A stretch of DNA of 64,000 nucleotides from Pseudomonadota bacterium (GCA_043718025.1 JAYSWN010000068.1:11817-75816), one strand, 5' to 3'. Positions 8,997 to 34,664 are shown, counted from the stretch's first letter. A program made the numbers and translations. The notes: a model not told the origin generated them from the sequence alone.

Positions 8997-9008
8997 ACGG
9001 AGAACTCA

Positions 9009-16040: not shown

Positions 16041-16060
16041 AAGGCGAGCTAGCTCGCCTT
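16041..16060. terminator. perfect 20-nt palindrome / hairpin between convergent genes
   Basis: AAGGCGAGCT|AGCTCGCCTT is exactly self-complementary and overlaps the last codons of the response-regulator gene. The flanking U-tracts are weak on both strands. Confidence 0.4.
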
Positions 16061-16705
16061 TCGTATTTCACGGTTAGGGTGCGGCCAAAGGCGTTTCCAT
16101 GAGAAACCCATGTTGGCTATGACTTGGATCTTTTGCGAGGCAATGGCTTCGTCCACGGATCGGGCATCTTTAGACTCAAATCCGGGCGGCACCAATATAT
16201 AGACCGTCATTCCTTGATAGCTCGATTGATAGACATCAACCGGTTTCCCGGCGGCATGTCCCGCTAACGCGGTCAGCGCTGAATCGCGCACGCGTAACTG
16301 AAATAGCAACGTCTTCAATGACGTAAAATCGAGCTGCATTAAGTGTTTGCTAAGACGACTAACCAGGTCATCTGACTTAAACGGTTTGGCAAGAAAATCG
16401 TCGCCGCCGAGACGGGATACTACCTGAGTTTTCTCGTGTGAAGGGTCACCGCTGACCAGTACTACTGGGATCTGGCACCAGTTTTCATTTTTTTTAAGTG
16501 CCTCAAGTGCGGCGAGGCCTCCCGTGCCGGGCATCGCAATGTCCAAAATAATCAGATGGGGTGACTCAGTGGCGACCTTGGTTAGGCAATCATCGCCAGA
16601 ATTCGCCACGATCACCTCGTACCCCTTCTTCTCTAGAAGGCGTCGCATCATGAACTGGATGCCAGCGTCGTCGTCAACGACCAAAATTTTCTTCGGACTA
16701 ACCAT
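16049..16705 (-). CDS. response regulator (REC domain plus ~90-aa uncharacterised C-terminal region)
   Basis: KILVVDDD...LIILDIAMPGTGG...VVLVSG...DDFLAKPF receiver motifs. It starts 4 nt after the upstream kinase stop. Confidence 0.85.
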   Translation of the reverse strand: MVSPKKILVVDDDAGIQFMMRRLLEKKGYEVIVANSGDDCLTKVATESPHLIILDIAMPGTGGLAALEALKKNENWCQIPVVLVSGDPSHEKTQVVSRLGGDDFLAKPFKSDDLVSRLSKHLMQLDFTSLKTLLFQLRVRDSALTALAGHAAGKPVDVYQSSYQGMTVYILVPPGFESKDARSVDEAIASQKIQVIANMGFSWKRLWPHPNREIRKAS

Positions 16706-16709
16706 TGAT

Positions 16710-18509
16710 CTAACTTTCCTTCTTCACAAACTCAGCCGCTTGGTTTCCCGTTCGTACAAATAGCGACACCGTTTTCAAAAGTGCTTTTCCAGAAAAGGGC
16801 TTTTGCAAAAGAACCATGGCTCCCGCTTCGCGTGCGTCCAACGCCATATCTTCAATCAAACCGCTCATGGCCAACATCGGGATTTCGGGAGCAATCGTGC
16901 GCAAGGCCCGCATGGTTGAAGCGCCATCCATCAACGGCATCATCATGTCGCATAGAACCAAATCAATCGGTGTTTTGCGTTCGGCCATGATCGCGACGGC
17001 GTCGGTGCCGTCCGCCGCGGTAACCACGTTATACCCCCAGTTTTTCAGCGTCTGCTCCGTCATTTGTCTCACCGACGGTTCGTCATCAACGATCAGAATG
17101 GTCTCACCGTTGCCCCGGGGCACGGGGAAGGGGTCTGCATTTTCTCGAAATTCAGGATTCTTAATCGCCGGAAACCACACCTTAAATTTTGTCCCTTTTT
17201 GTTTTTGGGTCATCACGCTTAAGAAGCCGCCGTGGGCGCGGACGATACCTAAAACGGTAGAGAGGCCGAGGCCCGTCCCTTTTCCAATGCCCTTCGTCGT
17301 GAAGAAAGGGTCAAAAATTTTGTCGATGATCTCCGGTGGAATGCCGCTGCCGGTGTCTTCGATCTGTAAAAGCACATGGGGTCCGCTGCTGGCTTCGGAG
17401 TTTTGGGCCGACTGAATATCGTCGACGATCACGTTGCTGACGTTGACCGAAAGGCTGCCTTGGGCTGGCATCGCATCCCGAGCGTTCAAACAAAGGTTCA
17501 TCAGCACTTGCGAGATTTGTATCTCTTCGCCAATTACGCCCCAAAGGTCGTGTGGGATTTGAACATTGATCTTGATGCCCTTGGGCAGGCTGTGCCGCAA
17601 GATTTCTTCGCTATCACGAATCACCCGAGCGAAGTCCACGTGATCTCTACCCGGTTTAAAACCACCTACGAATAATAATATCTGGCGCATGATGGCCTGC
17701 ACCCGCTCGGCATTTTTTCGGATCAGGCTGGCTAAATTTTTGGTGTCATTTCCTTCGGGGTCGTTCTCAATCATCTCGGCGCCAAAAAGAATCGGAAGCA
17801 GTGCGTTGTTCACGTCGTGCGCAATTCCACTGGCGAGGGTTCCCATGCTCTGCAGCCGCTCGGATCGCAATCGTGCGGATTCCCGTTGTTCTGAGACCGG
17901 TTCGACAACTGCCGAGTAGTTGGCGGTCTTACCCTCGCCAGTGCGGTATCCGTGAATAAGCCAGCGAGCCATCTCATTGGCCGTGCCGGTGGCGTCTTCA
18001 ATTTCGATTGACACATGTCCTTGGTTTTTCAGCTCATCCCACCACCGGCGCTTTTTTGCCGGGCTGGCGGCGAACAATAAATCAATTGAATCATGTTGGG
18101 CTAGAGCTTTTACCGGGTAGCCACTGCGGGCCAGGCCTTCGAAATTCGTCGATAAAATTTTTCCTTCGGCATCAAACTGAAAAAGGCCAATGTGGCGATT
18201 TAGAGACGGGGCGTCGGCTGTCTTTACTTTCGTAGAGGTATTCACGAGTTTAAGCGGCGTGGTTTTTGCGGTTTGTGATTGGGAAGCTAGATTTTCGGTG
18301 AGTCGTAAAGTAATCAAAACGAGGAGCGCGCTAACCAGGGTGGCAAGCCACGTAAATGGGATCAAAGCAGTCACGGCTGGTACCAGTCCAACGCAAACCG
18401 CCGCAACTGCAGAGCGGGGTATTCGGCGCAGCCGTTGCTGAATTGGCAAGTCGGAAGTGGGCGCTACCCTAAGTTGTGACTCCGCCAGATTTTTTTCGAT
18501 TTTTGCCAT
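16710..18509 (-). CDS. hybrid sensor histidine kinase (TM-PAS-HisKA-HATPase_c-REC)
   Basis: H-box SGIAHDVNNAL, N-box NLCLNARDAM, DTGSGIP, GTGLGLS, and a C-terminal REC (ILIVDDE...LVLCDMMMPLMDG). ATG 18509 (MAKIEKN) is chosen because the longer ORF to 18758 would overlap the divergent P450 start. Confidence 0.85.
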   Translation of the reverse strand: MAKIEKNLAESQLRVAPTSDLPIQQRLRRIPRSAVAAVCVGLVPAVTALIPFTWLATLVSALLVLITLRLTENLASQSQTAKTTPLKLVNTSTKVKTADAPSLNRHIGLFQFDAEGKILSTNFEGLARSGYPVKALAQHDSIDLLFAASPAKKRRWWDELKNQGHVSIEIEDATGTANEMARWLIHGYRTGEGKTANYSAVVEPVSEQRESARLRSERLQSMGTLASGIAHDVNNALLPILFGAEMIENDPEGNDTKNLASLIRKNAERVQAIMRQILLFVGGFKPGRDHVDFARVIRDSEEILRHSLPKGIKINVQIPHDLWGVIGEEIQISQVLMNLCLNARDAMPAQGSLSVNVSNVIVDDIQSAQNSEASSGPHVLLQIEDTGSGIPPEIIDKIFDPFFTTKGIGKGTGLGLSTVLGIVRAHGGFLSVMTQKQKGTKFKVWFPAIKNPEFRENADPFPVPRGNGETILIVDDEPSVRQMTEQTLKNWGYNVVTAADGTDAVAIMAERKTPIDLVLCDMMMPLMDGASTMRALRTIAPEIPMLAMSGLIEDMALDAREAGAMVLLQKPFSGKALLKTVSLFVRTGNQAAEFVKKES

Positions 18510-18575
18510 TTTATACCGGTACCTTTTCCTTTTCGGCTTAAGGCGTGATTTAATTTCGTTAAAAATGAGGTTCCG

Positions 18576-19820
18576 TTGAGTCTTCCCCATGGCCCGTCTC
18601 AAAGCCCGATCGAACAGACCTTTCATTGGTTCTCTAGGCCCTATGCCTTCTTGGACGAGTGCTCGGCTCAGTTTGGAGAAACCTTTTGCCTGAATTTTCA
18701 AGGCCTTGGCCCTCATGTGGTGACATCCGATCCGGAGTTCATTAGGGCAATTTTTCAAGGTGATGCGACCCAGTTTTTAGGCGGACAGGGAAAAGAGATG
18801 TTGCGTCCCTTTCTCGGAGAAAATTCAATACTTCTCACCGATGGCCCGCTGTACCAAAAGCACCGCAAGGGCATGTTGCCGCTTTTTCGGCCGCCCTGGC
18901 TCGAATTGTGGAGAGACTCACTCAATGAGGTGACCGCCGAATGGTTGAGGGCATGCCGCAAAGAAAACCTTGTCCACGAGTTTTGTCTCGAAATTTCGCT
19001 TCATTTAATAGTTCGTGCGATCTTCGGCAAGGCAAGTGCCGCCACCGCCATTTCAGAGGTGGTTTTAGCGTTCATGACCGGTGTGAATTTTAATGCGCAG
19101 GCCGCTCTCGATGAGGGCGGCGGGGGCAAGGCGATGGAACGACTCCATCGGAATTTGAATCGGCTGGACACGGTAGTCGCCGCCGAAATTGCGCGTCAGA
19201 AAAATAATCCAGACGAGGAGGCTTTGCTTTTTGGTTTAGTGAAAACCGCCGAGTCCGAGGCCTGGAATGAAAAAGAGATTCGCGATCAAGTGGTGACGTT
19301 ACTTATCGCTGGCCATGAGACCACGGCCACTACGCTTGCCTGGACTCTTTTCGAAATCGCCAAATCTCCGTCCACAAAAAAAAGAATGGAGGCCTCTTGC
19401 GACGTTGCTTTTTTCGATTCAGTGATCAAAGAAGGGATGCGACTTTGGCCGGTGATTCCGGTCGTGGCCAGAAAATTGGATTCGGTTTTTTCGTTCGGCG
19501 AATGGACGTTTGAAAAAGGGGTGCATTTGGTTCCGTGCGTTTATCTGGCGCACCGCAGGTCTAGCGCGTTCAAGAATCCAACGCAGTTTTTACCCGATCG
19601 GTTTTTAACGCTGGATCCTTCGCCGTTCGAGTATCTCCCTTTTGGTGGCGGAGTGCGGCGTTGCCTGGGAATGGGAATGGCGATGGAAGAGATGAACGCG
19701 GTGCTTCGCCAACTATTTCAACACTATCAGATTGAGTTCAGCGGAATGGAAAAGGTAAGGCCGGCACGACGCAGTGTGGCAATTATTCCGTCCGGTCCTT
19801 TTCGTCTGAAATTGCTATAA
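18576..19820 (+). CDS. cytochrome P450
   Basis: I-helix LLIAGHETTATT, ExxR (KEGMRLWP), and the heme-Cys motif FGGGVRRCLGMGMA. The TTG start has GAGG 5 nt upstream. Confidence 0.9.
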   Translation: MSLPHGPSQSPIEQTFHWFSRPYAFLDECSAQFGETFCLNFQGLGPHVVTSDPEFIRAIFQGDATQFLGGQGKEMLRPFLGENSILLTDGPLYQKHRKGMLPLFRPPWLELWRDSLNEVTAEWLRACRKENLVHEFCLEISLHLIVRAIFGKASAATAISEVVLAFMTGVNFNAQAALDEGGGGKAMERLHRNLNRLDTVVAAEIARQKNNPDEEALLFGLVKTAESEAWNEKEIRDQVVTLLIAGHETTATTLAWTLFEIAKSPSTKKRMEASCDVAFFDSVIKEGMRLWPVIPVVARKLDSVFSFGEWTFEKGVHLVPCVYLAHRRSSAFKNPTQFLPDRFLTLDPSPFEYLPFGGGVRRCLGMGMAMEEMNAVLRQLFQHYQIEFSGMEKVRPARRSVAIIPSGPFRLKLL

Positions 19821-20125
19821 TGACTGGTGTGAAATCAACCGCTACATACCAATTCAAAAGACCCGAGATCGAAGAGCGAACTCGGGCTACGATTCTAAAG
19901 GTCATGCAAAAGACCGTCGCTTTACGAAAGGCTGATTCGTTTGTTTCGGTACTGGGTTTCAATTCTCTGCGAATGGTTTCGCTTTCTCTCGCGTTAGAAG
20001 AGGAGTTTGGCAGTCAGCTTCTGCTGAACGACTGGATTGCTAGCGCTGACGATCCTCGTGATCTTACCGTGGGCTCCCTCTATGACTACGTGGAGAAAGC
20101 GCTCGCTGACGGCCTGAACGCATAA
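19820..20125 (+). CDS. stand-alone acyl/peptidyl carrier protein (PP-binding)
   Basis: 101 aa. VLGFNSLRMVSLSLALEEEFG matches the carrier-protein Ser motif, with N-S instead of D-S. The ATG overlaps the P450 stop (TAATG). Confidence 0.7.
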   Translation: MTGVKSTATYQFKRPEIEERTRATILKVMQKTVALRKADSFVSVLGFNSLRMVSLSLALEEEFGSQLLLNDWIASADDPRDLTVGSLYDYVEKALADGLNA

Positions 20126-22067: not shown

Positions 22068-25000
22068 GTGTTACAGCAAACCACCGATACTGCGCAGGAA
22101 ACTCTCCCTGCACTTGGCGAAAATCTTTCGCTGATGTGGGAGAGAATTTCCCGTTTCGCGCAATCTGATCCTAAAAGAGTCGCTTTGAGCCGTCTTTCGG
22201 CTCGCGGCGGTGAATTTACTGAAGACACTATCACCTACGGAAAATTGGAGCACGAAGCTCTCTCATTGGCGGTCTACTTTAAATCGCGCGGCTACTCCAA
22301 GGGGTCGTGTGTTCTTATGCTCGTTGAAGACCCCATTGATTTTGTCACCACACTTCTGGGGTTAACCCGGGCGGGTCTGGTGCCGGTTCCGCTTCCTCCC
22401 TTTCGCGGATTCGGGCGGATGCCGGCTTTTGAAGAGCGCTTGCAGGGAGTGGTGCGAGTCTGCCGGCCATGCCTCGTGGTTTCCGATGACACTCATTCGT
22501 GGAAAAAGAACAAAGACGAGATGGTGGCGCAGATTCCCTGCGAACACATCAGTCACGTTCGCGCTGAGTCTCTCATCCGCGAGAAACTTAAGGAAGATCG
22601 TGACCTTCCCTTGCCCACCAAAGACGACATCGCCTTTTTACAATTCACCTCGGGGAGTACCGGAGAACCCAAGGGCGTTGTCATCACTCACGAAAATTTA
22701 GCGGCCAATCTAACGGCGATGGGTCTGGCGACCGAATTTCGAGCCGATTCCGATCGTGTCGTGTCTTGGCTTCCTCTCCATCATGACATGGGCCTAGTGG
22801 GAGGCCTGTTATTCCCCCTTTATTGGAAAGTGCCCACCTACTTGATGTCACCTTTGAACTTCGTGGCTCAGCCATCGAGCTGGCTCTGGGCAATTCACCG
22901 CTATCACGCCACGATGACGGTGGGCCCTAACTTCGCCTATTCAGTGTTGGTAAAGCGGGCTCCGGACTGGGAACTAACTGGTCTCGACCTTTCTACATTG
23001 CGCTTGGCTTTCTGTGGCGCCGAACCCATCGATAGCAAAGTGATTACCCAGTTCAATCGGCGATTTTCTGCCTTCGGAGTCCGTTCCAGCGCCTTCTTTC
23101 CGGTATATGGAATGGCCGAAGCCACGCTCGCCGTAACTTTTCCTCCGTTGAATCAAGAAGCAGTTTATGAAAACGTGAATCGGGCTCACCTCATTGAGAA
23201 TGCCGAGGCCATCGTTTCTTTACAGGATTCTACCATTCCTTGCGTTTCTGTCGGCCAGCCTTTGCCAGGTCACAAGGTGAGCATTCGCAGTTTAGAGACT
23301 GATGAAGTGCTTGGAGATCGAAAGGTCGGTGAGATCGTCGTGTCCGGCCCCTCGATCAGTCGCGGCTATTTTGGTTTACCGCTGCGCTCTGGAGAATTGA
23401 AAACCGGCGACATTGGCTATCAGGCCAACGGAACTCTTTTTGTTATCGATCGCAAGAAAGATCTGATCATCATTGCCGGTCAGAACTATTATCCCTCAGA
23501 TTTGGAGCGTCATCTGGCGATGGTGGCTGGCATTCGCACGGGACGAGTCGCCACTTTCTCAGTCTCTAACGGTAGCGAGATTGAAGAGCTGGTAGTCGTA
23601 GCGGAACTCGGCCCTCATTCCTTCTCGCAACGCGATCAGATCCGACGCGAAATTGAAGGTAAAATTCATGAAACGTTTGGTCTTTCGGTCGCAAAAATAA
23701 TTTTCGTCATGCCTGGCCGTCTCCCCAAAACCACAAGCGGGAAGATTCGTCGGAAAGAGTGTGCCGAAATTTACGAACGCGGCGGATTCGCGAACCAATT
23801 TACCAAAGCACAAAGGGCATCACTGGCGGTTAAGAGCGGGCTTCGGCGTATCGTAATGCGACTCGTTCGCCTCAAAGCAGATGGCTGGAAACAGGTTTTC
23901 GACCAGGTCATGGAAGTCATCGAGTATTTTGTGCCGCCCGCGCTTCGCCAGGCCGATGCCGAGACCAAACGCCGCGCCAACTTGGTCGTCTTCTTTGCCT
24001 TTGCGGTTTCATTTTGGGCACCGGTATATGGCGCCGTATACGCTTTTGTATTGGAACTCCCGGTTGTTGGTTTCGCTATCTTGCTCGCCGGGGTCGGTGG
24101 CGCCGTGGTGCCGATATTGTTGCGCTTCACCGGGCGCATCAACCTTGCCGGTAATCTGTTAACCTTTCATTTGTTTTGGATCTTGTCTTACGCCGCGTGG
24201 TACAGCGGGGGACAAGGGTCGGCCCCTTTGATGTGGATGGTAGCGGTTCCCATGGTTGCCATTTGCATGTCCGGAACGAAGGCCGGAGTCCATTGGGGCG
24301 TAGCCGCCCTGGTCGAGCTTTTGGCCTTTTTTTGTTTCGATAAATTGGGCTGGGGAAGTCCACATGAATTGAGCGTGGATAAAGCGCGCTTTTTAAATAC
24401 TTCGGTACTATGCGGATTGCTCACTTTGATTACTACGCTGACGTTGCTCTATGAAGCGATGAAAAAAATGGCAATGCAAACGATCGAGGCCAACAATAAA
24501 GCGATCGCAAAGGGCCACGCTCGTTTGGGAGCCGTTTTAGATCACGCGCCAAACGGCATTGTTACCGTGGACCAGTTTGGCGCAATCGAAACCAGCAATC
24601 GGGCTGCGGAGCAAATGTTTGGTTTCACGAGCGGCGAGCTTAAAGGAAAACCTTTCAATTCTTTGTTGGTGCGGCTTTCTCTAGTTCATGGCGAAGAGAC
24701 AATCGAGGTGCCGGCTTTTCGCGATCTGTTCAAATCAGGCGGTAAACATTTTGAGGCGGTGGCCACCAACCGGGCCGGCAGCACCTTTGCGGTGGAATTC
24801 GGGGTGAGTGAGGCTGCGCTCGACCATTGGCGAATTTATACCATCATAATTGAAGATGTTACTGACCGTAAGCGTGCGGGTATGGAGTTGTTGAGGGCAA
24901 AAGAAATTGCGGAGGCCGCAAATATAGCAAAATCTACGTTTCTTGCGAATATGTCGCACGAGCTGCGCACGCCGATGCACGGTATCATCAGCTACGCCAC

Positions 25001-25646
25001 ATTCGGTCGGCGCGAATATCAAAAAGCATCTCCAGAAAAAATCTCGGGCTACTTTCAACACATTTTAGAAAGCGCCCACCGGTTGCTTAGTCTGCTGAAT
25101 AATCTATTAGATCTTTCAAAATTCGAAGCTAATAAAATGAGATTTCAGCTCATCAAGGCAGATTTGGCACGGGTAGTGGAAATGGTTCATGGAGAATTGG
25201 CCGGCTACGCTAAAGAAAAAAGCGTGGAAATTTTATTCGAAAGACCAGCCAAACCGATAGCCTGTGCGTTTGATGACGAAAAGATATCCCAAGTGGTCCG
25301 TAATCTGTTTTCGAACGCGATCAAATTTTCAAATCCGCAAACTGCGATTAAAATTGAAATTGGTTATACTGAACTGCCGCAGCGTGGAGTCTATTTTGCA
25401 ATCACAAATCAGGGTGTCGGAATTCCCGCCAACGAATTAGAACTTATTTTTGATAAGTTTGTACAAAGCAGTAAAACCCATTCTGGTTCCGGTGGTACGG
25501 GCTTAGGCCTGGCGATATGCCGCGAAATTTTGAATGGGCATAAAGGCAAAATATTTGCGTCGAATGACAATGATGGACGAACCCGATTCACATTCATTCT
25601 ACCTGCACAAGTTGAAGTCCTTGCAAAAAATCTGGAGGCAGCATGA
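22068..25646 (+). CDS. fusion protein: fatty acyl-AMP ligase (FAAL) - 6 TM helices - PAS - HisKA - HATPase_c sensor histidine kinase
   Basis: aa 1-575 carry FLQFTSGSTGEPKGVVITHENL, WLPLHHDMGL, GPNFAY, FCGAEP, YGMAEATL, TGDIGY, DRKKDLIIIAGQNYYPSDLE and KTTSGKIRR (FadD32-type adenylation motifs). aa ~637-796 form six hydrophobic helices. A PAS domain spans ~815-935. H-box MSHELRTP (His964, nt 24957-24959), N-box RNLFSNAIKFS, NQGVGIP, GGTGLGLAI. Confidence 0.85.
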   Translation: MLQQTTDTAQETLPALGENLSLMWERISRFAQSDPKRVALSRLSARGGEFTEDTITYGKLEHEALSLAVYFKSRGYSKGSCVLMLVEDPIDFVTTLLGLTRAGLVPVPLPPFRGFGRMPAFEERLQGVVRVCRPCLVVSDDTHSWKKNKDEMVAQIPCEHISHVRAESLIREKLKEDRDLPLPTKDDIAFLQFTSGSTGEPKGVVITHENLAANLTAMGLATEFRADSDRVVSWLPLHHDMGLVGGLLFPLYWKVPTYLMSPLNFVAQPSSWLWAIHRYHATMTVGPNFAYSVLVKRAPDWELTGLDLSTLRLAFCGAEPIDSKVITQFNRRFSAFGVRSSAFFPVYGMAEATLAVTFPPLNQEAVYENVNRAHLIENAEAIVSLQDSTIPCVSVGQPLPGHKVSIRSLETDEVLGDRKVGEIVVSGPSISRGYFGLPLRSGELKTGDIGYQANGTLFVIDRKKDLIIIAGQNYYPSDLERHLAMVAGIRTGRVATFSVSNGSEIEELVVVAELGPHSFSQRDQIRREIEGKIHETFGLSVAKIIFVMPGRLPKTTSGKIRRKECAEIYERGGFANQFTKAQRASLAVKSGLRRIVMRLVRLKADGWKQVFDQVMEVIEYFVPPALRQADAETKRRANLVVFFAFAVSFWAPVYGAVYAFVLELPVVGFAILLAGVGGAVVPILLRFTGRINLAGNLLTFHLFWILSYAAWYSGGQGSAPLMWMVAVPMVAICMSGTKAGVHWGVAALVELLAFFCFDKLGWGSPHELSVDKARFLNTSVLCGLLTLITTLTLLYEAMKKMAMQTIEANNKAIAKGHARLGAVLDHAPNGIVTVDQFGAIETSNRAAEQMFGFTSGELKGKPFNSLLVRLSLVHGEETIEVPAFRDLFKSGGKHFEAVATNRAGSTFAVEFGVSEAALDHWRIYTIIIEDVTDRKRAGMELLRAKEIAEAANIAKSTFLANMSHELRTPMHGIISYATFGRREYQKASPEKISGYFQHILESAHRLLSLLNNLLDLSKFEANKMRFQLIKADLARVVEMVHGELAGYAKEKSVEILFERPAKPIACAFDDEKISQVVRNLFSNAIKFSNPQTAIKIEIGYTELPQRGVYFAITNQGVGIPANELELIFDKFVQSSKTHSGSGGTGLGLAICREILNGHKGKIFASNDNDGRTRFTFILPAQVEVLAKNLEAA

Positions 25647-27232
25647 GCAATGAATTGCCGAAACTTGGAAGTGTCTTGGTCGTCGATGACGATCCCCGTA
25701 ACCTCGATATCATCTGCCATCTGCTGGAAGATCTGGTGAAGGAAGTGGTAACCGCAGCCGATGCTAAGGAAGCCATTCAAAAATTGGAAACTTTCGATGC
25801 GGACCTGGGACTGTTCGACATCATGATGCCTGGCATGAACGGTTACGAACTTTGTCAGTTGGCAAAAGAGAAATATCCGCACCTTAAAGTAGTATTAGTT
25901 TCGGCCAAGGCCTCTTTAGAAGAACGCATGGCCGGCTATGACGTGGGGGCGGACGACTACATTCCCAAACCTTTCGATCACGATGAGTTTATCGCCAAAG
26001 TACGGGTACTCATTAAACTGCAATTGGTTGAGAAGGAGCTGCGTCAATTCAACCAGGATTTAGAAACGCGGGTGCTGGAGCGTACCCAAGAAGTACAGAA
26101 CATGTACCAGCAGCTTCTCTTGTCATCGAAACTGGCTTCGTTAGGTGAGCTGTCGGCAAGTATCGCCCACGAAATTAACAATCCCCTTACCATTCTCAAA
26201 GGGAACGTTGATTACCTGCGCGAAGTGCTTGAAAAGAAAGGCTCTAAAGAACTGATTGCGGTTTTAGACCAACAAGACAAGGCGATTGTGCGGGTGGTGA
26301 ACATCATTCAGGGGCTTCGTCGCCATGCCCGCCACGATGACGCGGAAGTCGTTAGCTTTAATGTGCACAAATCAATTGAGGAGACTCTTTCGTTGATTCG
26401 TCCCTTGCTCAGTGGCGACAACGTCGCGTTGGTTACGAATTTATCCGCCGATTCACCCTACACCCGGGGGGTTCCGACGCGATTTCAACAAATTCTGATG
26501 AATTTGGCGACCAACGCCCGTGATGCCCTTAAAGGAGTCGCTGGAGCAACAATTGAAATTTCTACCCGCAGCGTAAAAGACAAATTAGAGATCGCGATCT
26601 CAGATAATGGCTGCGGCATTCCCGATCCAGTACGAAATAAGATCTTTGATCCGTTCTTCACGACCAAGGCAGTTGAACAAGGCACTGGTCTAGGTCTTTC
26701 GATTGTGGGTTCGATTATTTCTGAAATGAATGGCACGGTGCAGGTGAGTTCGTCGCCCAATCGGGGGACCACTTTCACGCTATATTTTCCCTGTCTTCGC
26801 TCGGAAGAGGTGCTGTTCCAAAAAGAGGCGGGGAGCGGGGCGGCCCCGGCCGAGATTCAGCTTAAAGGAAGAGTTTTGGTGGTGGAGGACGAAGAGGTGA
26901 TTGCCCACTTGGTCAGTCGCTATTTGCAGGACCTGGGGTTAGACGTCTCCACGGTACTTAATGGCGAAGACGGTTTAGAAAAATTGAAACACGAAACGTT
27001 CGATTTAGTTCTCACCGATATGCAGCTTCCCCATCTGAAAGGTAACGAGTTGGTGGCGGAAGCCAAGCGGCTGGGACGATGGGGTAAAACTCGGGTCGTG
27101 GCGGTTACCGGACAGGTCGATCCGGCGCTGGCGCCTAAGGATGGAAAAAGAGGGGTGGTTGGTTTTGACGGCCTGCTTTCCAAGCCGTTCTCGAAAGGCG
27201 ATGTTTATGCGATCGTTCGAGACCTTTTATAG
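25643..27232 (+). CDS. soluble hybrid relay kinase REC-HisKA-HATPase_c-REC
   Basis: The ATG overlaps the upstream stop (ATGA). REC1 is VLVVDDD...LGLFDIMMPGMNG...DDYIPKPF. H-box SIAHEINNPL, NLATNARDAL, DNGCGIP, GTGLGLS. REC2 is VLVVEDEE...LVLTDMQLP...LSKPF. There are no TM segments. Confidence 0.85.
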   Translation: MSNELPKLGSVLVVDDDPRNLDIICHLLEDLVKEVVTAADAKEAIQKLETFDADLGLFDIMMPGMNGYELCQLAKEKYPHLKVVLVSAKASLEERMAGYDVGADDYIPKPFDHDEFIAKVRVLIKLQLVEKELRQFNQDLETRVLERTQEVQNMYQQLLLSSKLASLGELSASIAHEINNPLTILKGNVDYLREVLEKKGSKELIAVLDQQDKAIVRVVNIIQGLRRHARHDDAEVVSFNVHKSIEETLSLIRPLLSGDNVALVTNLSADSPYTRGVPTRFQQILMNLATNARDALKGVAGATIEISTRSVKDKLEIAISDNGCGIPDPVRNKIFDPFFTTKAVEQGTGLGLSIVGSIISEMNGTVQVSSSPNRGTTFTLYFPCLRSEEVLFQKEAGSGAAPAEIQLKGRVLVVEDEEVIAHLVSRYLQDLGLDVSTVLNGEDGLEKLKHETFDLVLTDMQLPHLKGNELVAEAKRLGRWGKTRVVAVTGQVDPALAPKDGKRGVVGFDGLLSKPFSKGDVYAIVRDLL

Positions 27233-27959
27233 CTTTTCACAACCCTTACCCCCCCTACTCCAACTCGAGGAGGGCGAGGTTCAAGTGGTTCGTTTGAATA
27301 TTGAGGAGCTGCGTCCTTTTCTGCGCGAGCTTCATGGCATTTTGACGCCTGAAGAACTTAAGCGCGCCACGCTCTTTCGCTATCCCAAAGATGGCGATGG
27401 CTTCATTTTGGTGCGTGGAGCGCTGCGGTTGATCTTGGGCCGTTATGCGGGGGTACACCCGCAAGAGATAGAGTTTGATCACAACTCCCAAGGTAAACCG
27501 CGTCTGGTTAAGTCGCAAAACGACATGGGTCTGGAATTTAATGTCTCGTTTTCTGGTTCCATTGCCATTTACGCGTTTGCAAAGGGGATTTCCCTCGGAA
27601 TTGATGTAGAGCAGCGCGATTCAAAACTAGATTTTAAAAGCGTAAAAGATCGGTTTTTGGACAAGATCGATTTCAATTTTTTGGAAGGGTTGCCGGAACT
27701 GCTCAAACGGGATGGCTTCTTTGCGTTGTGGACCCTGCGCGAGGCGGCCGCCAAAGCGGAAGGGGAAGGTATTTTTTTCAAAGCGGTAAACCGCCCCCTC
27801 CCACTCGATCACTGGACGGCAGTTTCCTTTTTTCCGGGCGCTGGTTACTCCGCCACTTTAGTGATGGAGCAGAAAGCCGAAGGTGGCAGCCGCCACGTTA
27901 CTTTTTGGAGTTGGTCTAACACCGCCGTCGGCCTCTCGCACGGACCTGATCTTGAATAG
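27201..27959 (+). CDS. Sfp-type 4'-phosphopantetheinyl transferase
   Basis: Motifs SQGKPRL, SLGIDVE, WTLREAAAKAEGEG. ATG 27201/27207 with AAAGG upstream lies inside the 3' end of the preceding gene (~32-nt overlap). Confidence 0.8.
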   Translation: MFMRSFETFYSFSQPLPPLLQLEEGEVQVVRLNIEELRPFLRELHGILTPEELKRATLFRYPKDGDGFILVRGALRLILGRYAGVHPQEIEFDHNSQGKPRLVKSQNDMGLEFNVSFSGSIAIYAFAKGISLGIDVEQRDSKLDFKSVKDRFLDKIDFNFLEGLPELLKRDGFFALWTLREAAAKAEGEGIFFKAVNRPLPLDHWTAVSFFPGAGYSATLVMEQKAEGGSRHVTFWSWSNTAVGLSHGPDLE

Positions 27960-27968
27960 GAGTTTTCT

Positions 27969-29096
27969 ATGCCCGAGATGATTACCGAAAGACCCCGAAT
28001 TCTTCTGGTGGATGACGAGAAGGAGATCGCCCAAGTGATCTCTCGCCTTCTGGACATTCATGGTTTTGATGTCACTCTGGCCCACACCGCGCAAGAGGCG
28101 TTGGACAGTATGGAGACCCAACTTCCCGAGCTGGTGCTTTCCGATGTGGTGATGCCCGGCAAAGATGGTTATGCGCTCTGTGGAGAGATTCGTCGGCGCT
28201 ATGAAGATAAAGTGGTTCCCATCATCCTGATTACGGGTAAGGACTGGAGCGGTGAACGGGCTCGTGGCCTAGAAGCCGGCGCTGACGACCTCATTACCAA
28301 ACCCATTGATAAGAATGAACTGCTTAACCGAATTCATTCCCTCGTAAAAATGAAAACGTTGCACGATTCCGTGGAGTCGCAAGCGCACAAACTTGCCGCC
28401 AAGGGGGCCGAACTCGAGACTAAAGTTAATGTGCAAACCAATCAGTTGGGTCAGCTAAAACGGTTTTTCTCCCCGCAGATTGCCGATTTTGTGCTTTCGC
28501 ACGCTTCCGAAGCAGTTTTTCAATCGCGTCGAAAAGACGTAACCGTAGTTTTTTTGGATCTGCGTGGCTTTACCGCCTTCGCCGAAAAGGCGCTCCCGGA
28601 ACAAGTAATGGAGGTTCTCGGTGAGTATTATGCAACCGCTGGCGATATCGCCCTTAAATTCAATGGCTCGATCGGTCGTTTGGCCGGGGATGGCATGATG
28701 TTTTTCTTGAATGATCCGGTTGAGATTCCCAACCACGCGGTGCGAGCGGTGGAAATGGCTTTGGCCATGCGCGAAGCCATGATTCGCTTGCGCGGCCAAT
28801 GGGTTCCCAAAGGGTATGAGTTAGACTTTGGCATCGGCATGGCCACCGGCCGTGCCACTATCGGTGCCGTCGGCTTTGAGAAATATTGGGATTATACCGT
28901 CATCGGGTCGGTTACCAACTTGGCTTCCCGTCTTTGCGATGAAGCGAAATCGGGTCAAATTCTCGCTTCCGAGCGTTTTTTGGGCGATACCGCCAATGGT
29001 TTTCGCACCCAACCGTTGGGCGTCGTGCCGCTCAAAGGGTTTGGTAATCCGGTTAAGATCTTTAACATCTTGGCTAAAAAGACTGACGAAAAATGA
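27969..29096 (+). CDS. response regulator with class III adenylate/guanylate cyclase output domain
   Basis: REC is ILLVDDE...LVLSDVVMPGKDG...DDLITKPI. Cyclase motifs are VTVVFLDLRGFTAF, GRLAGDGMMFF, IGMATGRATIGAVG, YTVIGSVTNLASRL. It starts 9 nt after the PPTase gene. Confidence 0.85.
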   Translation: MPEMITERPRILLVDDEKEIAQVISRLLDIHGFDVTLAHTAQEALDSMETQLPELVLSDVVMPGKDGYALCGEIRRRYEDKVVPIILITGKDWSGERARGLEAGADDLITKPIDKNELLNRIHSLVKMKTLHDSVESQAHKLAAKGAELETKVNVQTNQLGQLKRFFSPQIADFVLSHASEAVFQSRRKDVTVVFLDLRGFTAFAEKALPEQVMEVLGEYYATAGDIALKFNGSIGRLAGDGMMFFLNDPVEIPNHAVRAVEMALAMREAMIRLRGQWVPKGYELDFGIGMATGRATIGAVGFEKYWDYTVIGSVTNLASRLCDEAKSGQILASERFLGDTANGFRTQPLGVVPLKGFGNPVKIFNILAKKTDEK

Positions 29097-29839
29097 AAGC
29101 CCAACGTAAATTGAAGTTAGCTCCGCCGCCCGCAATTGCGGGGCAAGAGATCGTTCCCTCTCCTGGCGAAGATCGATTCATTCTCGCGGCGGCGTTAGTG
29201 GTTTCGTTTTCTGGCGTGGCCTACGAACTTCTGCTCGCTACTTATGCCACCTACCTATGGGGAGGTAGTATTTTCCAGTACAGCCTGGTTTTTTCGTCAA
29301 TGATGCTTTCGATGGGGGTAGGCTCTTGGCTATCGGACCGCGGAAAGGCAAGCCCCGGCGTTCGCTTCGTCGTCATTGAATGCTTTTTGGCCGCGCTCGG
29401 GGTTGTTTGTTTGCCCTTGCTCTACACGGCATACTGGAAAGGCTTTGCCCCACTGTTTTTCACCTTCGGATTTAGCTTAGCTTTTGGCTTTTTAGTCGGG
29501 GTTGAAATCCCTTTATTAAACCGCTGGCTGGGGCGAGAGAAAAAAATCTCCGAATTATTGTCGGTCGACTTTGCCGGGGGCTTCTTAGGCGGAATCCTAT
29601 TCCCCCTTTTTTTAGTTCCTCATCTGGGCCTTTTTCGCGTGGCGGCATTGGTCGCGCTGCTCAATGCAATGGTGGCCCTTCTGGGATCCAGGCTAGCGAT
29701 AGTGCGCGCCGCAACTTCAATTCAAAAAAGCCATTGGCTTCAAGTCTTCGCCATTGCGGTCTGTCTTTTTGGGTTGGGATTTTTGTTTTGGGCCAATGAG
29801 ATCCAAAGTTGGATGCAGTACCGCTTCTTTGGTTTCTAA
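29093..29839 (+). CDS. polytopic membrane protein paralogous to the TM domain of membrane spermidine-synthase-like proteins
   Basis: ATGA overlap with the cyclase stop. About 7 TM. The N-terminal pattern SGVAYELLLATY...MMLSMGVGSW mirrors the N-terminus of the next ORF. Confidence 0.6.
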   Translation: MKAQRKLKLAPPPAIAGQEIVPSPGEDRFILAAALVVSFSGVAYELLLATYATYLWGGSIFQYSLVFSSMMLSMGVGSWLSDRGKASPGVRFVVIECFLAALGVVCLPLLYTAYWKGFAPLFFTFGFSLAFGFLVGVEIPLLNRWLGREKKISELLSVDFAGGFLGGILFPLFLVPHLGLFRVAALVALLNAMVALLGSRLAIVRAATSIQKSHWLQVFAIAVCLFGLGFLFWANEIQSWMQYRFFGF

Positions 29840-29850
29840 AAAGGAAATTA

Positions 29851-31434
29851 ATGCTCACGCCTTTGCAAATATATCTTCTCTGTGTCGCGGTCAGCGGTAG
29901 TGGCTTTGTCGCACAGACCCTCATTTCCGGATTTTGGTCCACGGTATTCAACGAGGATTCAGTCTACTACTCCGTAAATCTGGCTTTCTACTTCGGTGGC
30001 ATGGGGGTTGGCAGCTTGATTGCCGGCTGGTTCGGAAAGGCTACGGAAAAGCTGGTGTTAAAATTCGTTTTGGCACTTCTCGTTTTGGTTGCCCTCATGA
30101 TTCCATTGCTTCGGGTAGGCGTGAGCTGGCTCGGCAATCGGGAATTCCTCCCGCTGTTCTTAGTGATCGCAGCCGGAATCTTTGCCGGCGCAACTATTCC
30201 TTTGGTAATTCGACTTCGAAGTCGTGGCAATCAGACAAGCTTGGGTACCGTCTTTTTCTTAGATTACTGTTCGGCGTTTGTCTTTTCGTGCCTCTTTAAT
30301 CTTTTCCTCTTGATGCGTTTGGGCTATCTGCAGACCGCTTGGCTTTGCTTTTTTGCGGGGTCTACTCTTTGTCTACCTGCGGTTTACCAATTGGGAAAAA
30401 GGAAGGGAGTCTTGGCCTATGTGACCTCGTTCGTCGTGGTCGCACTGACCTCCTATCTCCTTTCGTCCCACGGTATGAATCCGGATCCCCAATCCCGGGC
30501 GGAATTTAAAGTGTTGGTTGATCGTCAGTCGCCGTATCAGAAAATTGTGATGACCGAAGAGATTGGCCACGGGTCTCTTTTTCCCGGCGCAATTCACCAG
30601 GTGATGTACTTAGATGGCATGGTGCAATTCTCGAGTCTCGATGAGACCAGCTATCACATTTGCTTAGCCAATATTCCAATCACCGCGGTTGAGTTCTTTG
30701 GGGGAAAACCTCGGCGCGCCCTTATCTTAGGCGGCGGCGATGGACTCGCCGCCCGAAATCTTTTGGCCTACCCCTCGGTTGAAGCGGTTAAACTGGTTGA
30801 GTTGGATCCGCTAATGATCAGTCTTGCTCAGCATGACCCCCATTTAGTTAAAATGAACGCCCGGTCATTCTACGATCCCCGTTTTTCGTACGTCGAGGGC
30901 GATGCCTTTCGGTGGATTAAGGAGAGCGAAGAGAAGTTTGACGTAATCCTTCTAGATTTTCCGCACCCGAAAAATTTATCGCTCGCACGTCTCTACTCAG
31001 CGGAATTCTATACTCAGTTAAAGAAACGATTGACCGCCGATGGTTTCATTTCGATTCAGTCGGGCCCAGCCTTTTCGCCGCAGGATACTGAGCGCAACAC
31101 GCTTAGCGAAATTTCATCCGCGATTTTGGAGACGGTGAGGAGGGCGGGATTGAAGGCAGAAATTTATTTGAGTCCGGCGGATCAAGAGGCCTTTGTGATA
31201 GCCACGGCTCGAAAGGATTTTGACATGAACCGTTTTGCTACGGCAATGAGCATGACCGGAGCTGATGGCCTGGGTTTTCTTTGCCAATTTATCCCGTCGT
31301 GGAAGCGGCCGCCGGCCAGCGTTAATACGCTAAATGATCTTTCGCTCGTGACTTACATGGACCGTTGGAATCGCGGTGGCGCCCGAAAAAATTACGACTT
31401 TAGGGGGTCGCGTTCCGTTTTCTTACCCCGTTAA
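29851..31434 (+). CDS. membrane-anchored spermidine synthase-like (SpeE-fold) protein
   Basis: AAGGAAA SD before ATG 29851. About 7 TM, then SpeE motifs ALILGGGDGLAARN, VELDP, VEGDAF, DVILLDFPHP. The canonical D(S/T)xDP box is altered. Confidence 0.72.
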   Translation: MLTPLQIYLLCVAVSGSGFVAQTLISGFWSTVFNEDSVYYSVNLAFYFGGMGVGSLIAGWFGKATEKLVLKFVLALLVLVALMIPLLRVGVSWLGNREFLPLFLVIAAGIFAGATIPLVIRLRSRGNQTSLGTVFFLDYCSAFVFSCLFNLFLLMRLGYLQTAWLCFFAGSTLCLPAVYQLGKRKGVLAYVTSFVVVALTSYLLSSHGMNPDPQSRAEFKVLVDRQSPYQKIVMTEEIGHGSLFPGAIHQVMYLDGMVQFSSLDETSYHICLANIPITAVEFFGGKPRRALILGGGDGLAARNLLAYPSVEAVKLVELDPLMISLAQHDPHLVKMNARSFYDPRFSYVEGDAFRWIKESEEKFDVILLDFPHPKNLSLARLYSAEFYTQLKKRLTADGFISIQSGPAFSPQDTERNTLSEISSAILETVRRAGLKAEIYLSPADQEAFVIATARKDFDMNRFATAMSMTGADGLGFLCQFIPSWKRPPASVNTLNDLSLVTYMDRWNRGGARKNYDFRGSRSVFLPR

Positions 31435-32426
31435 ATTTTTTCACATCGTAATCGCAGATTGATGGTCATATCGCTGTTTGGGTAGCGGAAGCTTGAGGTG
31501 ATTTTCCGTTTTTCAAAAGGGGAGAGTCGGAGCACGTTGGGGCTTGGTTTTTCAAGATCACCCATTCTAAAGAGTGTTTCGCACTTTTTCTCTACGGCCT
31601 CGTGGTTAATCACATCGTAATGCATTTCCAGCACCTGGGGTGCCCCTTCCAGCGTGAAGCGACAAAAGACACTTTCGGTCGAAGTCTTATTCTCGTTCGT
31701 GCAGCGAAATGAAGGGATCTTCGACTTCTCGCGAATGTCCAAATACAAGAAGGCAACGGTGGCTAAGCACCAGAGCAGGAAAACGCGAACTGCAGTGGTA
31801 CGCCCCTTTTCGCTCGGCCGGTGCCGAAGTATCCAGGGCTTAAGGGCAAGTCCAATTGCCAGCGAGAGAAGGCAAATGAACGCGGTAAAGAGAACTGAGT
31901 AGATCGGGCCTCTCATCCATTCCGCCCCGGGCATGCAGGTGCGGTGGATGCAATTCACATTTTGGTTTTCGGGAAAAAGCCAGGACACGAAGAAGATCCC
32001 GGCGTGTACCAACGCTTGTTTTGGCGCCGGCAGCCAACGTTGATCTTTGGTGACGAATAGGTAGGTAATGCCCACCGGCAAAATGTAAAAGTGATAGTGG
32101 CTCAGCAGGAATTCATCGGTCGGGTTGCCGGGCTGGTACATGAACTCAACCAACCCGAAGAGATTTCGGCCCGTAAAAATCCGCCAGAAGTTATCCGTGA
32201 TCCAAAATGTTTGGGTCGCTAGGGCTACCGAAATCCAGCCGAGTCCCCATCCCCAGTGGTCAAATACCAGTACGGCTCCTATCGACCCTAAACACAAATT
32301 ACAGAACCACCAGTACATCCCTTCGTCCCAGCCATAACGCGTAAAACTCAAGTAGGTATTTGCGGCGGCCCAGAGGAGAAAAAGGTAGCCGATAGTTTTA
32401 AAAAACTGGCGTTGGGTGAAAGGCAT
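31431..32426 (-). CDS. hypothetical polytopic membrane protein with Cys-containing soluble C-terminal domain
   Basis: Trp-rich TM helices. It is convergent with the preceding gene and overlaps it by 4 nt. Confidence 0.55.
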   Translation of the reverse strand: MPFTQRQFFKTIGYLFLLWAAANTYLSFTRYGWDEGMYWWFCNLCLGSIGAVLVFDHWGWGLGWISVALATQTFWITDNFWRIFTGRNLFGLVEFMYQPGNPTDEFLLSHYHFYILPVGITYLFVTKDQRWLPAPKQALVHAGIFFVSWLFPENQNVNCIHRTCMPGAEWMRGPIYSVLFTAFICLLSLAIGLALKPWILRHRPSEKGRTTAVRVFLLWCLATVAFLYLDIREKSKIPSFRCTNENKTSTESVFCRFTLEGAPQVLEMHYDVINHEAVEKKCETLFRMGDLEKPSPNVLRLSPFEKRKITSSFRYPNSDMTINLRLRCEKI

Positions 32427-32650
32427 CCTCTATTGTCCCACGACCTTCCCTTTTCCTCTGCTCTTCCATTAATATTCTATAAATACAATGATTTATCGAA
32501 AGAGTGAACGGGCGTATAAACTCTAGGCTGAATTTCTTTTTTGCTTTCAATGCTTAACGAAGCTGGCCCGCCGGGCCGTATAAACCTTGGTCATAAGTCG
32601 CAAAGGTGGCCGCTGATCATATGGCATCCGGTGTGCACTCTATTTGTCAC

Positions 32651-33574
32651 ATGAACCGACAAAATTACTTTTCAGTACGACATCTTTTCTCTGTGGCACT
32701 GTGGTCGTTTTTGGCGATCGGGGTAGTGATGTCGGGCGGTTGTAACCAGGGGAGCAGTCGCTCCACTTTGGGTGACGACAAAACCAAGGAAGATGTTTTC
32801 AAAGACTTTAATGACCTGGGCAATAATGGAAAAGGGAAGTCGCTCGGCGATATCGGGGCCGGTGGTGGTGTCGCGCAGCCTAAACCTGGCAGCAATTCTG
32901 ACGGCTCTTTCTCAGGATTAGACAAACAGGCGGTCAACAACGCCTACTCCGAAAACCAGCAAGTGGCCCCAACCGGCAAAATAGAGATTTTTACCGACGA
33001 GCTTAAGGCTCAAGCAAAAGAGATTTTGGCGCTCCAACGGCAAAAAAAGGACACGGCCGTAAAAAAACTTTTGTTCATGGCGGCAATGCTTAAGCGTTGC
33101 GGCGAAGTCGTGGCTAAATTCACCCCAATCGCGGGCCAGCCGTTGATGGGAAAGTGGAATGGACAAGGCGCTTGTAGTGTAAGTTTTGACGTGGCCGGAA
33201 ACGGAGCCGGCGGTAAATACGCGGTTACCGGAGGCAGCAAGGGCACTTTAACTGCCGACACTCAGGGAAAAGGCGCGATTCAGGCCGATCCTTTCTCAGG
33301 TAACGTGGTGGACTCGCCGCAATCCGGAACCGGGCAGGTGGTCTATCCAGGTTTCTTCAAAACCAAAGCTGGGACGTCTGACTGTGTGCTCGGCATCCGC
33401 TTGGCCGAACCAACCAGCCCCATTCCGGCTAACTACAAAGAAGGCATGACCGTGATGGGTGCCTGCCTTCGTAATACGGCTCTGTTTATCAGTCCGGTGT
33501 TCGACAGGATGTTCCAGGACATGAATCCTGCCGTCTCTGAACAGCTACAAAAGAAGTTCTTAAATATTGAGTAA
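32651..33574 (+). CDS. hypothetical lipoprotein
   Basis: ATG 32651 gives MNRQNYF...LAIGVVMSGGC with a lipobox-like SGGC. Confidence 0.5.
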   Translation: MNRQNYFSVRHLFSVALWSFLAIGVVMSGGCNQGSSRSTLGDDKTKEDVFKDFNDLGNNGKGKSLGDIGAGGGVAQPKPGSNSDGSFSGLDKQAVNNAYSENQQVAPTGKIEIFTDELKAQAKEILALQRQKKDTAVKKLLFMAAMLKRCGEVVAKFTPIAGQPLMGKWNGQGACSVSFDVAGNGAGGKYAVTGGSKGTLTADTQGKGAIQADPFSGNVVDSPQSGTGQVVYPGFFKTKAGTSDCVLGIRLAEPTSPIPANYKEGMTVMGACLRNTALFISPVFDRMFQDMNPAVSEQLQKKFLNIE

Positions 33575-33632
33575 GGTCACTCCCCATTTAAGTACCAAAT
33601 CAGCCCGCATCTCATTCCCAATGACGACTTCT

Positions 33633-34502: not shown

Positions 34503-34664
34503 ATTGGCCCCCCTTAAGCCTAAAGGGTGCAAGCGAGGGTCCTAAAGTTCACCGATGAGTACTTTCTGTATACAGGGCAGAAGTGTAGATCTCGTCGTTT
34601 TTTGTCTTTTTCTTAGGCGGCCACTCGGCCGTGGGTGCTTCGTTTTCAAAGGCTGGCCAACAAA

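Follow-up and report, generated by a model that had tools for sequence, protein, structure and literature searches.

How a fatty acyl-AMP ligase (FAAL) and a histidine kinase come to lie in one reading frame, and what such a protein might do, is the question raised by one gene in the stretch of DNA analysed here, 64,000 nucleotides (nt) from a Pseudomonadota bacterium (GCA_043718025.1 JAYSWN010000068.1:11817-75816). This whole stretch is called the window, and its numbering is used unless another locus is named. Dedicated sensor domains are generally regarded as the means by which histidine kinases sense their ligands. The gene (FAAL-HK) is a continuous open reading frame (ORF) without internal stop; it starts with GTG, is preceded at a distance of 8 nt by the Shine-Dalgarno sequence GAGGA, and encodes 1192 amino acids that comprise, in this order, a complete FAAL, a 75-residue spacer, six transmembrane (TM) helices resembling the MASE6 module, a PAS domain and the HisKA and HATPase_c domains of a histidine kinase (Table 1). 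In Pfam searches the ligase half matched AMP-binding (residues 29-435, E 5e-66), by which hidden Markov model the N-domain is confirmed as an adenylate-forming enzyme, and more weakly the AMP-binding C-terminal domain (465-570); the other matches were PAS_9 (828-933), HisKA (954-1021) and HATPase_c (1069-1181). A preliminary description of the sequence had proposed a single polypeptide with an unbroken frame, and this view stands; the motifs that it quoted were each found in place.

Searching 5.8 billion proteins yielded four further full-length proteins of the same architecture (79, 68, 47 and 47 % identity), and further ones came to light in metagenome contigs and in species-representative genomes. 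Ligase and kinase were in one frame through the junction in eight independent contigs, with G+C contents of 49-64 % and identities down to 40 %; the single frame extends across nt 23800-24000, where the preliminary description had wanted a frameshift or an assembly join to be excluded. Because eight independent contigs keep a single frame across the junction, the fusion is not an artefact: it is genuine, long maintained and conserved in uncultured Bdellovibrionota. Where the fusion-bearing metagenome-assembled genomes (MAGs) carry a name, it is Bdellovibrionota or, loosely, 'Deltaproteobacteria' or 'Pseudomonadota'. The fusion protein is not named in any source annotation among the relatives retrieved, and a literature search found no paper describing a FAAL-kinase fusion or the gene cassette presented below, in agreement with the earlier description, whose author knew of no such fusion having been characterised. 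The fusion search covered relatives of this protein, and unrelated ligase-kinase fusions may exist elsewhere.

The two halves also occur as separate polypeptides. The nearest unfused kinase (P0121) has the architecture 6TM-PAS-HisKA-HATPase and is encoded directly 3' of a separate gene for a 605-amino acid ligase, which is 41 % identical to the ligase half of the fusion. At this junction the stop codon that follows ...GPPV overlaps the ATG of the kinase (gtATGAcg), an overlap typical of translational coupling, with no frameshift. The same layout of two genes, ligase then kinase, was found in loci L017 and L020, with overlaps of 4 and 7 nt, respectively. Because a FAAL gene is followed by a kinase gene with overlapping stop and start codons in three loci, the two halves are taken to be partners in the sense of the Rosetta stone principle. 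The ligase-linked kinases clustered together in a rough neighbour-joining (NJ) tree, and for P0123, a kinase outside this clade, no ligase was found nearby. NJ trees of the ligase and the kinase halves disagreed on the monophyly of the fused forms; these trees carry no support values, and a number of fusion or fission events is not claimed. In one split locus (L015, positions 2030-2140) the ligase tail ends with ...HHIAYTGPPV and the kinase head starts with MTELGINSFIEYFIPDA. Each is similar to the IEYFVPP motif, which the fused protein has once, and this hints at a small duplication at the point of fission or fusion.

The distance between the Lys motif at the end of the ligase and the RRA motif before TM1 was exactly 75 residues in each of the six fusions for which the positions of both motifs could be established. 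The MASE6 head motif IEYFVP lies inside this spacer (residues 618-623), and residues 580-621 were predicted by AlphaFold to form one helix, with low pLDDT. The split forms are cut in the same spacer, leaving a tail of 42-43 residues on the ligase and a head of 27-29 residues on the kinase. Segment 576-636 was the least conserved part of the protein, with 11 % of the positions invariant as compared with 33-61 % in the ligase, the TM module and HisKA.

The ligase half contains the adenylation motifs FLQFTSGSTGEPKG, YGMAEATL, TGDIGY, DRKKD and TTSGKIRR, with the codon of the catalytic Lys559 at nt 23742-23744. These motifs, including the A10 lysine, were invariant in seven proteins, namely the five fusions and the two stand-alone FAALs closest to them. 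NCBIfam models of the FAAL type scored approximately 385 bits on the ligase half, whereas a typical CoA-ligase model scored approximately 170 bits. No curated NCBIfam cut-off was reached (best PRK09192, 384 bits vs 600; FadD32, 255 vs 975), and the ligase half is, judged by these scores, FAAL-like and outside every named NCBIfam subfamily. A sequence search of the PDB gave the Escherichia coli FAAL 3pbk as the best match (8e-78), as compared with 9e-21 for the FadD-1 CoA ligase; the other nearest solved structures were the olefin-synthase FAAL domain, the Legionella FAAL, FadD23 and FadD32. When the AlphaFold model of the full-length protein was compared with known structures by Foldseek, the top 31 matches were all FAALs, with TM-scores up to 0.87 (0.86 to both 3pbk and 7r7e), and the CoA ligases were weaker than the FAAL matches by at least 10 orders of magnitude. 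The spacing between motifs A5 and A6 is 74 residues, 407 residues fall on 382 Pfam profile positions, and the AlphaFold model has an extra strand-helix-strand at residues 367-398 of the ligase, features that would be compatible with the FAAL-specific insertion known to block the CoA-thioester conformation. Outside the family the nearest sequence relatives were fusions of FAAL, acyl carrier protein (ACP) and PlsC acyltransferase (approximately 38 % identity). With sequence and fold in agreement and the catalytic motifs present throughout the family, the assignment of the N-terminal part to the FAAL type in the preliminary description was correct, and the ligase half looks catalytically intact and active.

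Hydropathy, the positive-inside charge pattern and the AlphaFold model gave the same six TM helices, as had been proposed earlier together with a cytoplasmic location of both ends. Given the even number of TM helices, ligase and kinase are both predicted to be on the cytoplasmic side. In the model TM6 runs into the PAS domain as one helix (residues 770-825), and the PAS_9 match (34 bits) was above the cut-off. The TM block itself scored 12 bits (E 0.22) with Pfam MASE6 (PF20966) and missed the gathering threshold of 27.4; in a direct Pfam scan of this block only MASE6 and MASE11 were matched, both below threshold. The Foldseek search mentioned above was dominated by the ligase and uninformative on the TM module. 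When searched exhaustively with HMMER, a profile of the TM block returned 1,924 representative proteins, 610 of them with E-values below 1e-10. Among 64 proteins sampled from these, 54 had HATPase_c, 36 a receiver (REC) domain, three were methyl-accepting chemotaxis proteins (MCPs), and 21 matched Pfam MASE6 (best E 3e-9). Through such intermediate sequences the TM block can be regarded as homologous to the recognised MASE6 proteins, and the module as an autonomous, widespread type of N-terminal sensor. In almost all relatives found by HMMER it starts at residue 20-50, while in the fusion it is preceded by 617 residues. Because the module is nearly always N-terminal, the ancestral unit would have been MASE6-like/PAS/histidine kinase, and the FAAL an N-terminal addition peculiar to a small clade. 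Four proteins of 1073-1224 amino acids (P0165, P0243, P0211 and P0250) have two complete histidine kinase units in tandem, with a MASE6-like module between them. With their internal TM module they were considered as further enzyme fusions and were rejected, being tandem kinase-kinase proteins.

In the kinase, the H box (MSHELRTP) contains the phospho-acceptor His964 and is adjacent to an E-x-x-T phosphatase motif (HisKA E 3.5e-17); 61 % of the HisKA columns were invariant within the family. The N box (RNLFSNAIKFS), F box (FDKFVQ) and G2 box (GGTGLGL) are present (HATPase_c E 1.6e-25). The preliminary description had regarded the N, G1 and G2 boxes as intact, which is right for N and G2 and must be amended for G1: this box (25404-25427) reads TNQGVGIP, i.e. 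NxGxG instead of DxGxG, with Asn1114 encoded at nt 25407-25409. At this position asparagine was shared by all of the five full-length fusions, the split partners P0121 and P0122, the L020 kinase and P0131. Aspartate was found in 80 of the 83 other MASE6-type kinases and in both neighbouring kinases of the window. The G1 asparagine is a rare change that marks the clade of FAAL-linked kinases. That every Asn-G1 kinase is linked to a ligase was also considered and rejected, P0131 being an exception; the clade, as delimited by sequence, is mostly, not always, ligase-linked.

In a structural study of VanS the Asp-to-Asn change in G1 was described as 'rare, but not unprecedented' and was tied to millimolar ATP affinity; an Asn-adenine hydrogen bond in ThkA was reported, and a GTP-preferring kinase with the same change was cited (bioRxiv 10.1101/2022.12.12.520123). 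VanS-A, VanS-C and ThkA share the rare change in DxGxG with the fusion, but their sensor types are unrelated to that of the fusion kinase. By analogy, these precedents suggest weak ATP binding or an altered nucleotide preference. Because the same rare asparagine is known in active kinases, the kinase of the fusion is probably functional, although unusual.

The gene encoding the fusion is one of a row of tightly spaced genes on the same strand (Table 1), a spacing that suggests an operon; operon membership rests on this spacing and on synteny. Scans for promoters (11 sites vs 13.5 expected) and for terminators (28 vs 25.7) did no better than with shuffled sequences. Wherever the contigs were long enough, genes for a FadB/FadJ-like hydratase, an ACP and a cytochrome P450 were found upstream and a gene for a hybrid kinase downstream, whether the locus was fused or split. 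The P450 gene was located 5' of the ACP and hydratase genes in L003, L013, L002, L017, L020, L014 and L019. The ACP gene overlaps the P450 stop by 1 nt, and its attachment-serine motif LGFNSL is conserved in L002, L003 and L017. The hydratase was modelled with high confidence (AlphaFold pLDDT 91, pTM 0.91), and its full-length Foldseek matches were the alpha subunit of the trifunctional enzyme, FadJ and FadB. Both catalytic glutamates are kept (E112 and E134); in the dehydrogenase-like half the GxGxxG motif was not found. This hydratase family comprises approximately 50 clusters, all with generic annotations.

Downstream, the hybrid kinase gene was immediately 3' of the kinase in every fused or split locus reaching far enough, and its REC-first product is the likely phosphorelay partner of the fusion. 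The 4'-phosphopantetheinyl transferase (PPTase), which recurs in L004 and L020, would activate the ACP of the cluster. Transfer of the acyl group by the FAAL to a carrier protein, and not to CoA, is predicted from context, by the dedicated ACP with its attachment serine and by the Sfp-type PPTase. The REC/cyclase protein, a candidate for the output of the relay, was seen again in the fused loci L004 and L002 only. In this protein the metal-binding motif FLDLRGFT, the class IIIb-like DYTVIGSVTNLASRL and GRLAGD could be recognised by eye. GRLAGD has arginine where an adenine-specifying lysine would be expected, which makes the nucleotide specificity uncertain. In L020, a split locus on a contig of 1.68 Mb, a gene for a FadL/Toluene_X-type outer-membrane channel (18810-20075, minus strand) adjoins the PPTase gene; such a channel for hydrophobic compounds would be in keeping with a fatty acid or lipid being taken up from outside.

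The cassette of FAAL, ACP, hydratase and P450, often accompanied by a short-chain dehydrogenase/reductase (SDR), was also found without a dedicated kinase, both beside the nearest stand-alone FAAL (L014) and in the cultured Pyxidicoccus sp. MSG2 (L019). Two further proteins join members of the cassette: a FAAL-P450 fusion of 1083 amino acids (P0008, from a Polyangiaceae MAG) and an SDR-hydratase fusion of 755 amino acids (P0313), which by their architecture connect the cassette enzymes through independent Rosetta-stone links.

Table 1. Features of the fusion gene and of its neighbours (window coordinates).
Feature	Position	Strand	Details and evidence
Cytochrome P450, first gene of the cassette	18576..19820	+	Pfam p450 E 1e-50
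Stand-alone ACP, 101 aa, LGFNSL attachment-serine motif	19820..20125	+	Weak PP-binding and NCBIfam ACP matches
FadB/FadJ (trifunctional-enzyme alpha)-like hydratase, 606 aa	20190..22010	+	Pfam ECH_1, AlphaFold, Foldseek
FAAL/MASE6-like/PAS/histidine kinase fusion ORF	22068..25646	+	1192 aa; ORF calling, Pfam, relatives
FAAL catalytic region	22152..23792	+	N-domain aa 29-435, C-domain aa 436-575; motifs A3, A5, A7, A8, A10 (Lys559); Pfam, NCBIfam, PDB search, Foldseek
Fixed-length spacer, 75 residues (aa 563-637), Lys motif to RRA motif	23754..23978	+	Alignment, AlphaFold, split forms
Six TM helices, divergent MASE6-type sensor module	23976..24461	+	aa 637-798; motif SGGxGSxPLMWxVAVPMVAICM; hydropathy, charge pattern, AlphaFold, HMMER
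TM6-continuous signalling helix and cytoplasmic PAS	24462..24872	+	AlphaFold, Pfam
HisKA and HATPase_c	24927..25610	+	His964 at nt 24957-24959 (CAC); N, G1 (Asn1114), F and G2 boxes; Pfam, motifs
REC-HisKA-HATPase-REC hybrid kinase	25643..27232	+	Pfam; start overlaps FAAL-HK stop by 4 nt
Sfp/HetI-type 4'-phosphopantetheinyl transferase	27141..27959	+	Pfam ACPS, AASDHPPT_N; NCBIfam HetI
REC/class III nucleotide cyclase	27969..29096	+	Pfam Response_reg, Guanylate_cyc

The reading that we prefer, and to which we give somewhat less than an even chance, is that a membrane-tethered FAAL, which starts the tailoring of an ACP-bound fatty acid, is coupled to a lipid-sensing kinase. In the envisaged mechanism the FAAL, on the inner side of the membrane, would adenylate a fatty acid and load it onto the PPTase-primed ACP of the cluster, and P450 and hydratase would tailor the tethered acyl chain to give an oxygenated or unsaturated fatty-acid product. 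Having almost no periplasmic loops, the MASE6-like module most likely senses, within the bilayer, a membrane-soluble lipid, which would be either a substrate or a product of the cassette. The signal would pass from TM6 through the PAS domain to His964 and on to the first REC domain of the hybrid kinase. The relay would end, in this sub-clade, at the REC-cyclase with the formation of a cyclic nucleotide. The fixed 75-residue tether would keep synthase and sensor in one complex and so couple lipid activation to lipid sensing. Information might pass from the ligase half to the kinase or in the opposite direction, or the halves might simply be co-localised.

Several observations weigh against this reading. 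The tether is poorly conserved in sequence and was modelled with low confidence, and for the full-length protein (mean pLDDT 82.4) the pTM was 0.51, so that the model does not predict how the domains are placed relative to one another. The G1 asparagine could mean that the kinase is weak, and in P0131 an Asn-G1 kinase occurs with no ligase nearby. The REC-cyclase was not seen in the split loci, and an output of this kind is therefore not universal. A literature search found no papers on MASE6, its ligand or its function. Finally, the ligase-linked loci number 11 (eight fused and three split), and all are metagenomic.

The preliminary description had suggested that substrate binding or turnover by the ligase is read out directly as kinase activity. 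According to this alternative the FAAL serves as a sensory input, its occupancy by fatty acid or acyl-adenylate and the motion of its C-terminal subdomain reaching the kinase through the linker helix and TM1, and the protein would report the availability of fatty acids in the cytoplasm. The strictly constant 75-residue distance between C-domain and TM1, predicted as one long helix, would suit such a transmission. There is also a precedent in Pseudomonas aeruginosa FadD1, a CoA ligase that is the receptor of cis-2-decenoic acid and is reported to be a non-canonical transcriptional regulator (PMC12754631). FadD1, like the fusion, is an adenylate-forming fatty-acid ligase doubling as a signalling component, but is not fused to a kinase or a membrane domain. 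Three findings speak instead for the FAAL as a biosynthetic enzyme. Because the same cassette exists without the kinase, the FAAL is taken to be primarily a working enzyme, and it does not seem to be just an input domain because the kinase has two sensor modules of its own, the PAS domain and the MASE6-type TM block, which approximately 1,900 other proteins have without a ligase, and because the halves are separate polypeptides in three loci. All catalytic residues of the FAAL are kept, moreover, and it has ACP and PPTase partners, as expected for an enzyme, while the linker that would have to transmit the signal is the least conserved segment of the protein and of low confidence in the model. 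We consider direct read-out unlikely.

It could also be that the fusion is neutral, having arisen by the loss of a stop codon between coupled genes, with 1:1 stoichiometry and membrane anchoring of the ligase as the only consequences; the kinase would then sense something unrelated and merely regulate the cluster. The variable spacer sequence would agree with this, as would the fact that MASE6 kinases normally act without a ligase, and split and fused forms coexist and are not cleanly separated in the rough NJ trees. Yet eight lineages, at identities as low as 40 %, have kept the fusion together with an exact spacer length, and the ligase-linked kinases are a distinct clade with their own G1 signature, which together argue for co-evolution rather than accident and make a neutral fusion quite unlikely.

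Even less can be said for the opposite direction of control, in which the tethered ligase is the output and is gated by the kinase according to its state of signalling, much as RpfC holds RpfF back when cell density is low. The diffusible signal factor (DSF) system offers the precedent of a sensor kinase by which a signal synthase is bound and inhibited (PMC9864630), and the fixed length of the tether and the translational coupling of the split forms are in line with such control. RpfC, however, binds the synthase via its REC domain, and the fusion is without a REC domain; this explanation appears improbable. The last alternative, that a frameshift, a chimeric assembly or a mis-called ORF joined two separate genes, was rejected as having a virtually negligible probability: two separate genes do occur in three related loci, but these show clean overlapping stop and start codons without frameshifts, and in the fused form eight assemblies from different samples and of different G+C contents have one continuous frame with junctions that align.

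A bolder version of the preferred reading, in which membrane-tethered lipid activation is coupled to lipid sensing, is that the locus encodes a previously unknown lipid-signal circuit of the Bdellovibrionota. Here the FAAL, as the first enzyme of the biosynthesis, and a receptor kinase for the finished fatty-acid signal would be combined in one polypeptide, making and perceiving the signal would directly control one another, the G1 asparagine would confer low ATP affinity or a preference for GTP, and the output would be a cyclic nucleotide rather than transcription. In this complete form the proposal is speculative and unlikely.

The loci have some further features. In the window, genes for a hybrid histidine kinase (HisKA-HATPase-REC, 682 amino acids) and a REC protein (218 amino acids) lie on the minus strand (16049-18758), divergent from the P450 gene. 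The minus-strand ORF call overlaps that of the P450 at 18576-18758, and one of the start codons is probably mis-set; the pair was not conserved in the other loci examined. The cyclase gene is followed by two consecutive genes for spermidine-synthase-like membrane proteins (29093-31434). The first protein (248 amino acids) matches only the N-terminal membrane part of PRK03612 and the second (541 amino acids) all of it, which looks like a partial tandem duplication; this arrangement was not shared by other loci. Four further ORFs (31431-34532; 171-331 amino acids) gave no Pfam match. In L002 a DUF4118-PAS-histidine kinase and a REC protein are inserted between hydratase and FAAL-HK (7884-9769, minus strand).

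The system closest in logic is DSF/Rpf. In this system a crotonase makes the fatty-acid signal on ACP, the sensor RpfC binds and restrains the synthase, and the ligase RpfB handles the same fatty acid (PMC9864630). Like DSF/Rpf of Xanthomonas, the cluster brings together an enzyme of crotonase fold that would act on acyl-ACP, a fatty-acid ligase of the adenylate-forming kind, a sensor kinase with several TM helices and a phosphorelay, and a second-messenger enzyme linked to a REC domain. No protein is orthologous, however. The hydratase of the cluster, with its 606 residues, is FadB/FadJ-like and not RpfF, the ligase is of the FAAL type with its own ACP, PPTase and P450, and the TM module is MASE6-like. 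The fusion sensor has neither a REC nor an HPt domain, a nucleotide cyclase is the candidate output in place of the HD-GYP phosphodiesterase RpfG, and it is the ligase, not the crotonase, that is tied to the sensor, and this covalently. By analogy, the cluster resembles DSF/Rpf in logic and is not a member of that system.

Stand-alone FAAL and ACP cassettes (E. coli, Legionella, the olefin-synthase FAAL domain, FadD32/Pks13) share with the fusion the ligase fold, the motifs and a dedicated carrier protein with tailoring enzymes nearby, but none is fused to a membrane sensor or kinase. Cassettes of the JamA/JamC type are further examples of stand-alone FAAL and ACP loading. The MASE6 sensor kinases (PF20966) have a six-TM block of the same broad family; in these relatives the module serves histidine kinases, hybrid kinases and some MCPs as their N-terminal sensor, whereas in the fusion an enzyme precedes it. 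CqsS and LuxN, kinases with several TM helices, detect lipid-like autoinducers within the membrane, and their synthase and receptor are separate proteins. Their likeness to the fusion (at least six TM helices with minimal loops, a kinase feeding a phosphorelay and a neighbouring acyl-dependent synthase) is one of organisation.

The component domains of the fusion are all well known. What is new is their combination, the duality of split and fused forms, the tether of fixed length, the clade-specific G1 asparagine and the linked cassette. The fatty-acid tailoring cassette (FAAL, ACP, P450, FadB-like hydratase and sometimes SDR) is uncharacterised, and cultured myxobacteria make it genetically approachable. 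The MASE6-type modules, which occur in approximately 1,900 representative proteins, gain a first candidate class of ligands. A kinase tethered to a lipid-activating enzyme, a pairing of interest to specialists in two-component systems and in lipid signalling, and one that occurs in nature both split and fused, offers a system for studying how metabolism and signalling are coupled at the membrane.

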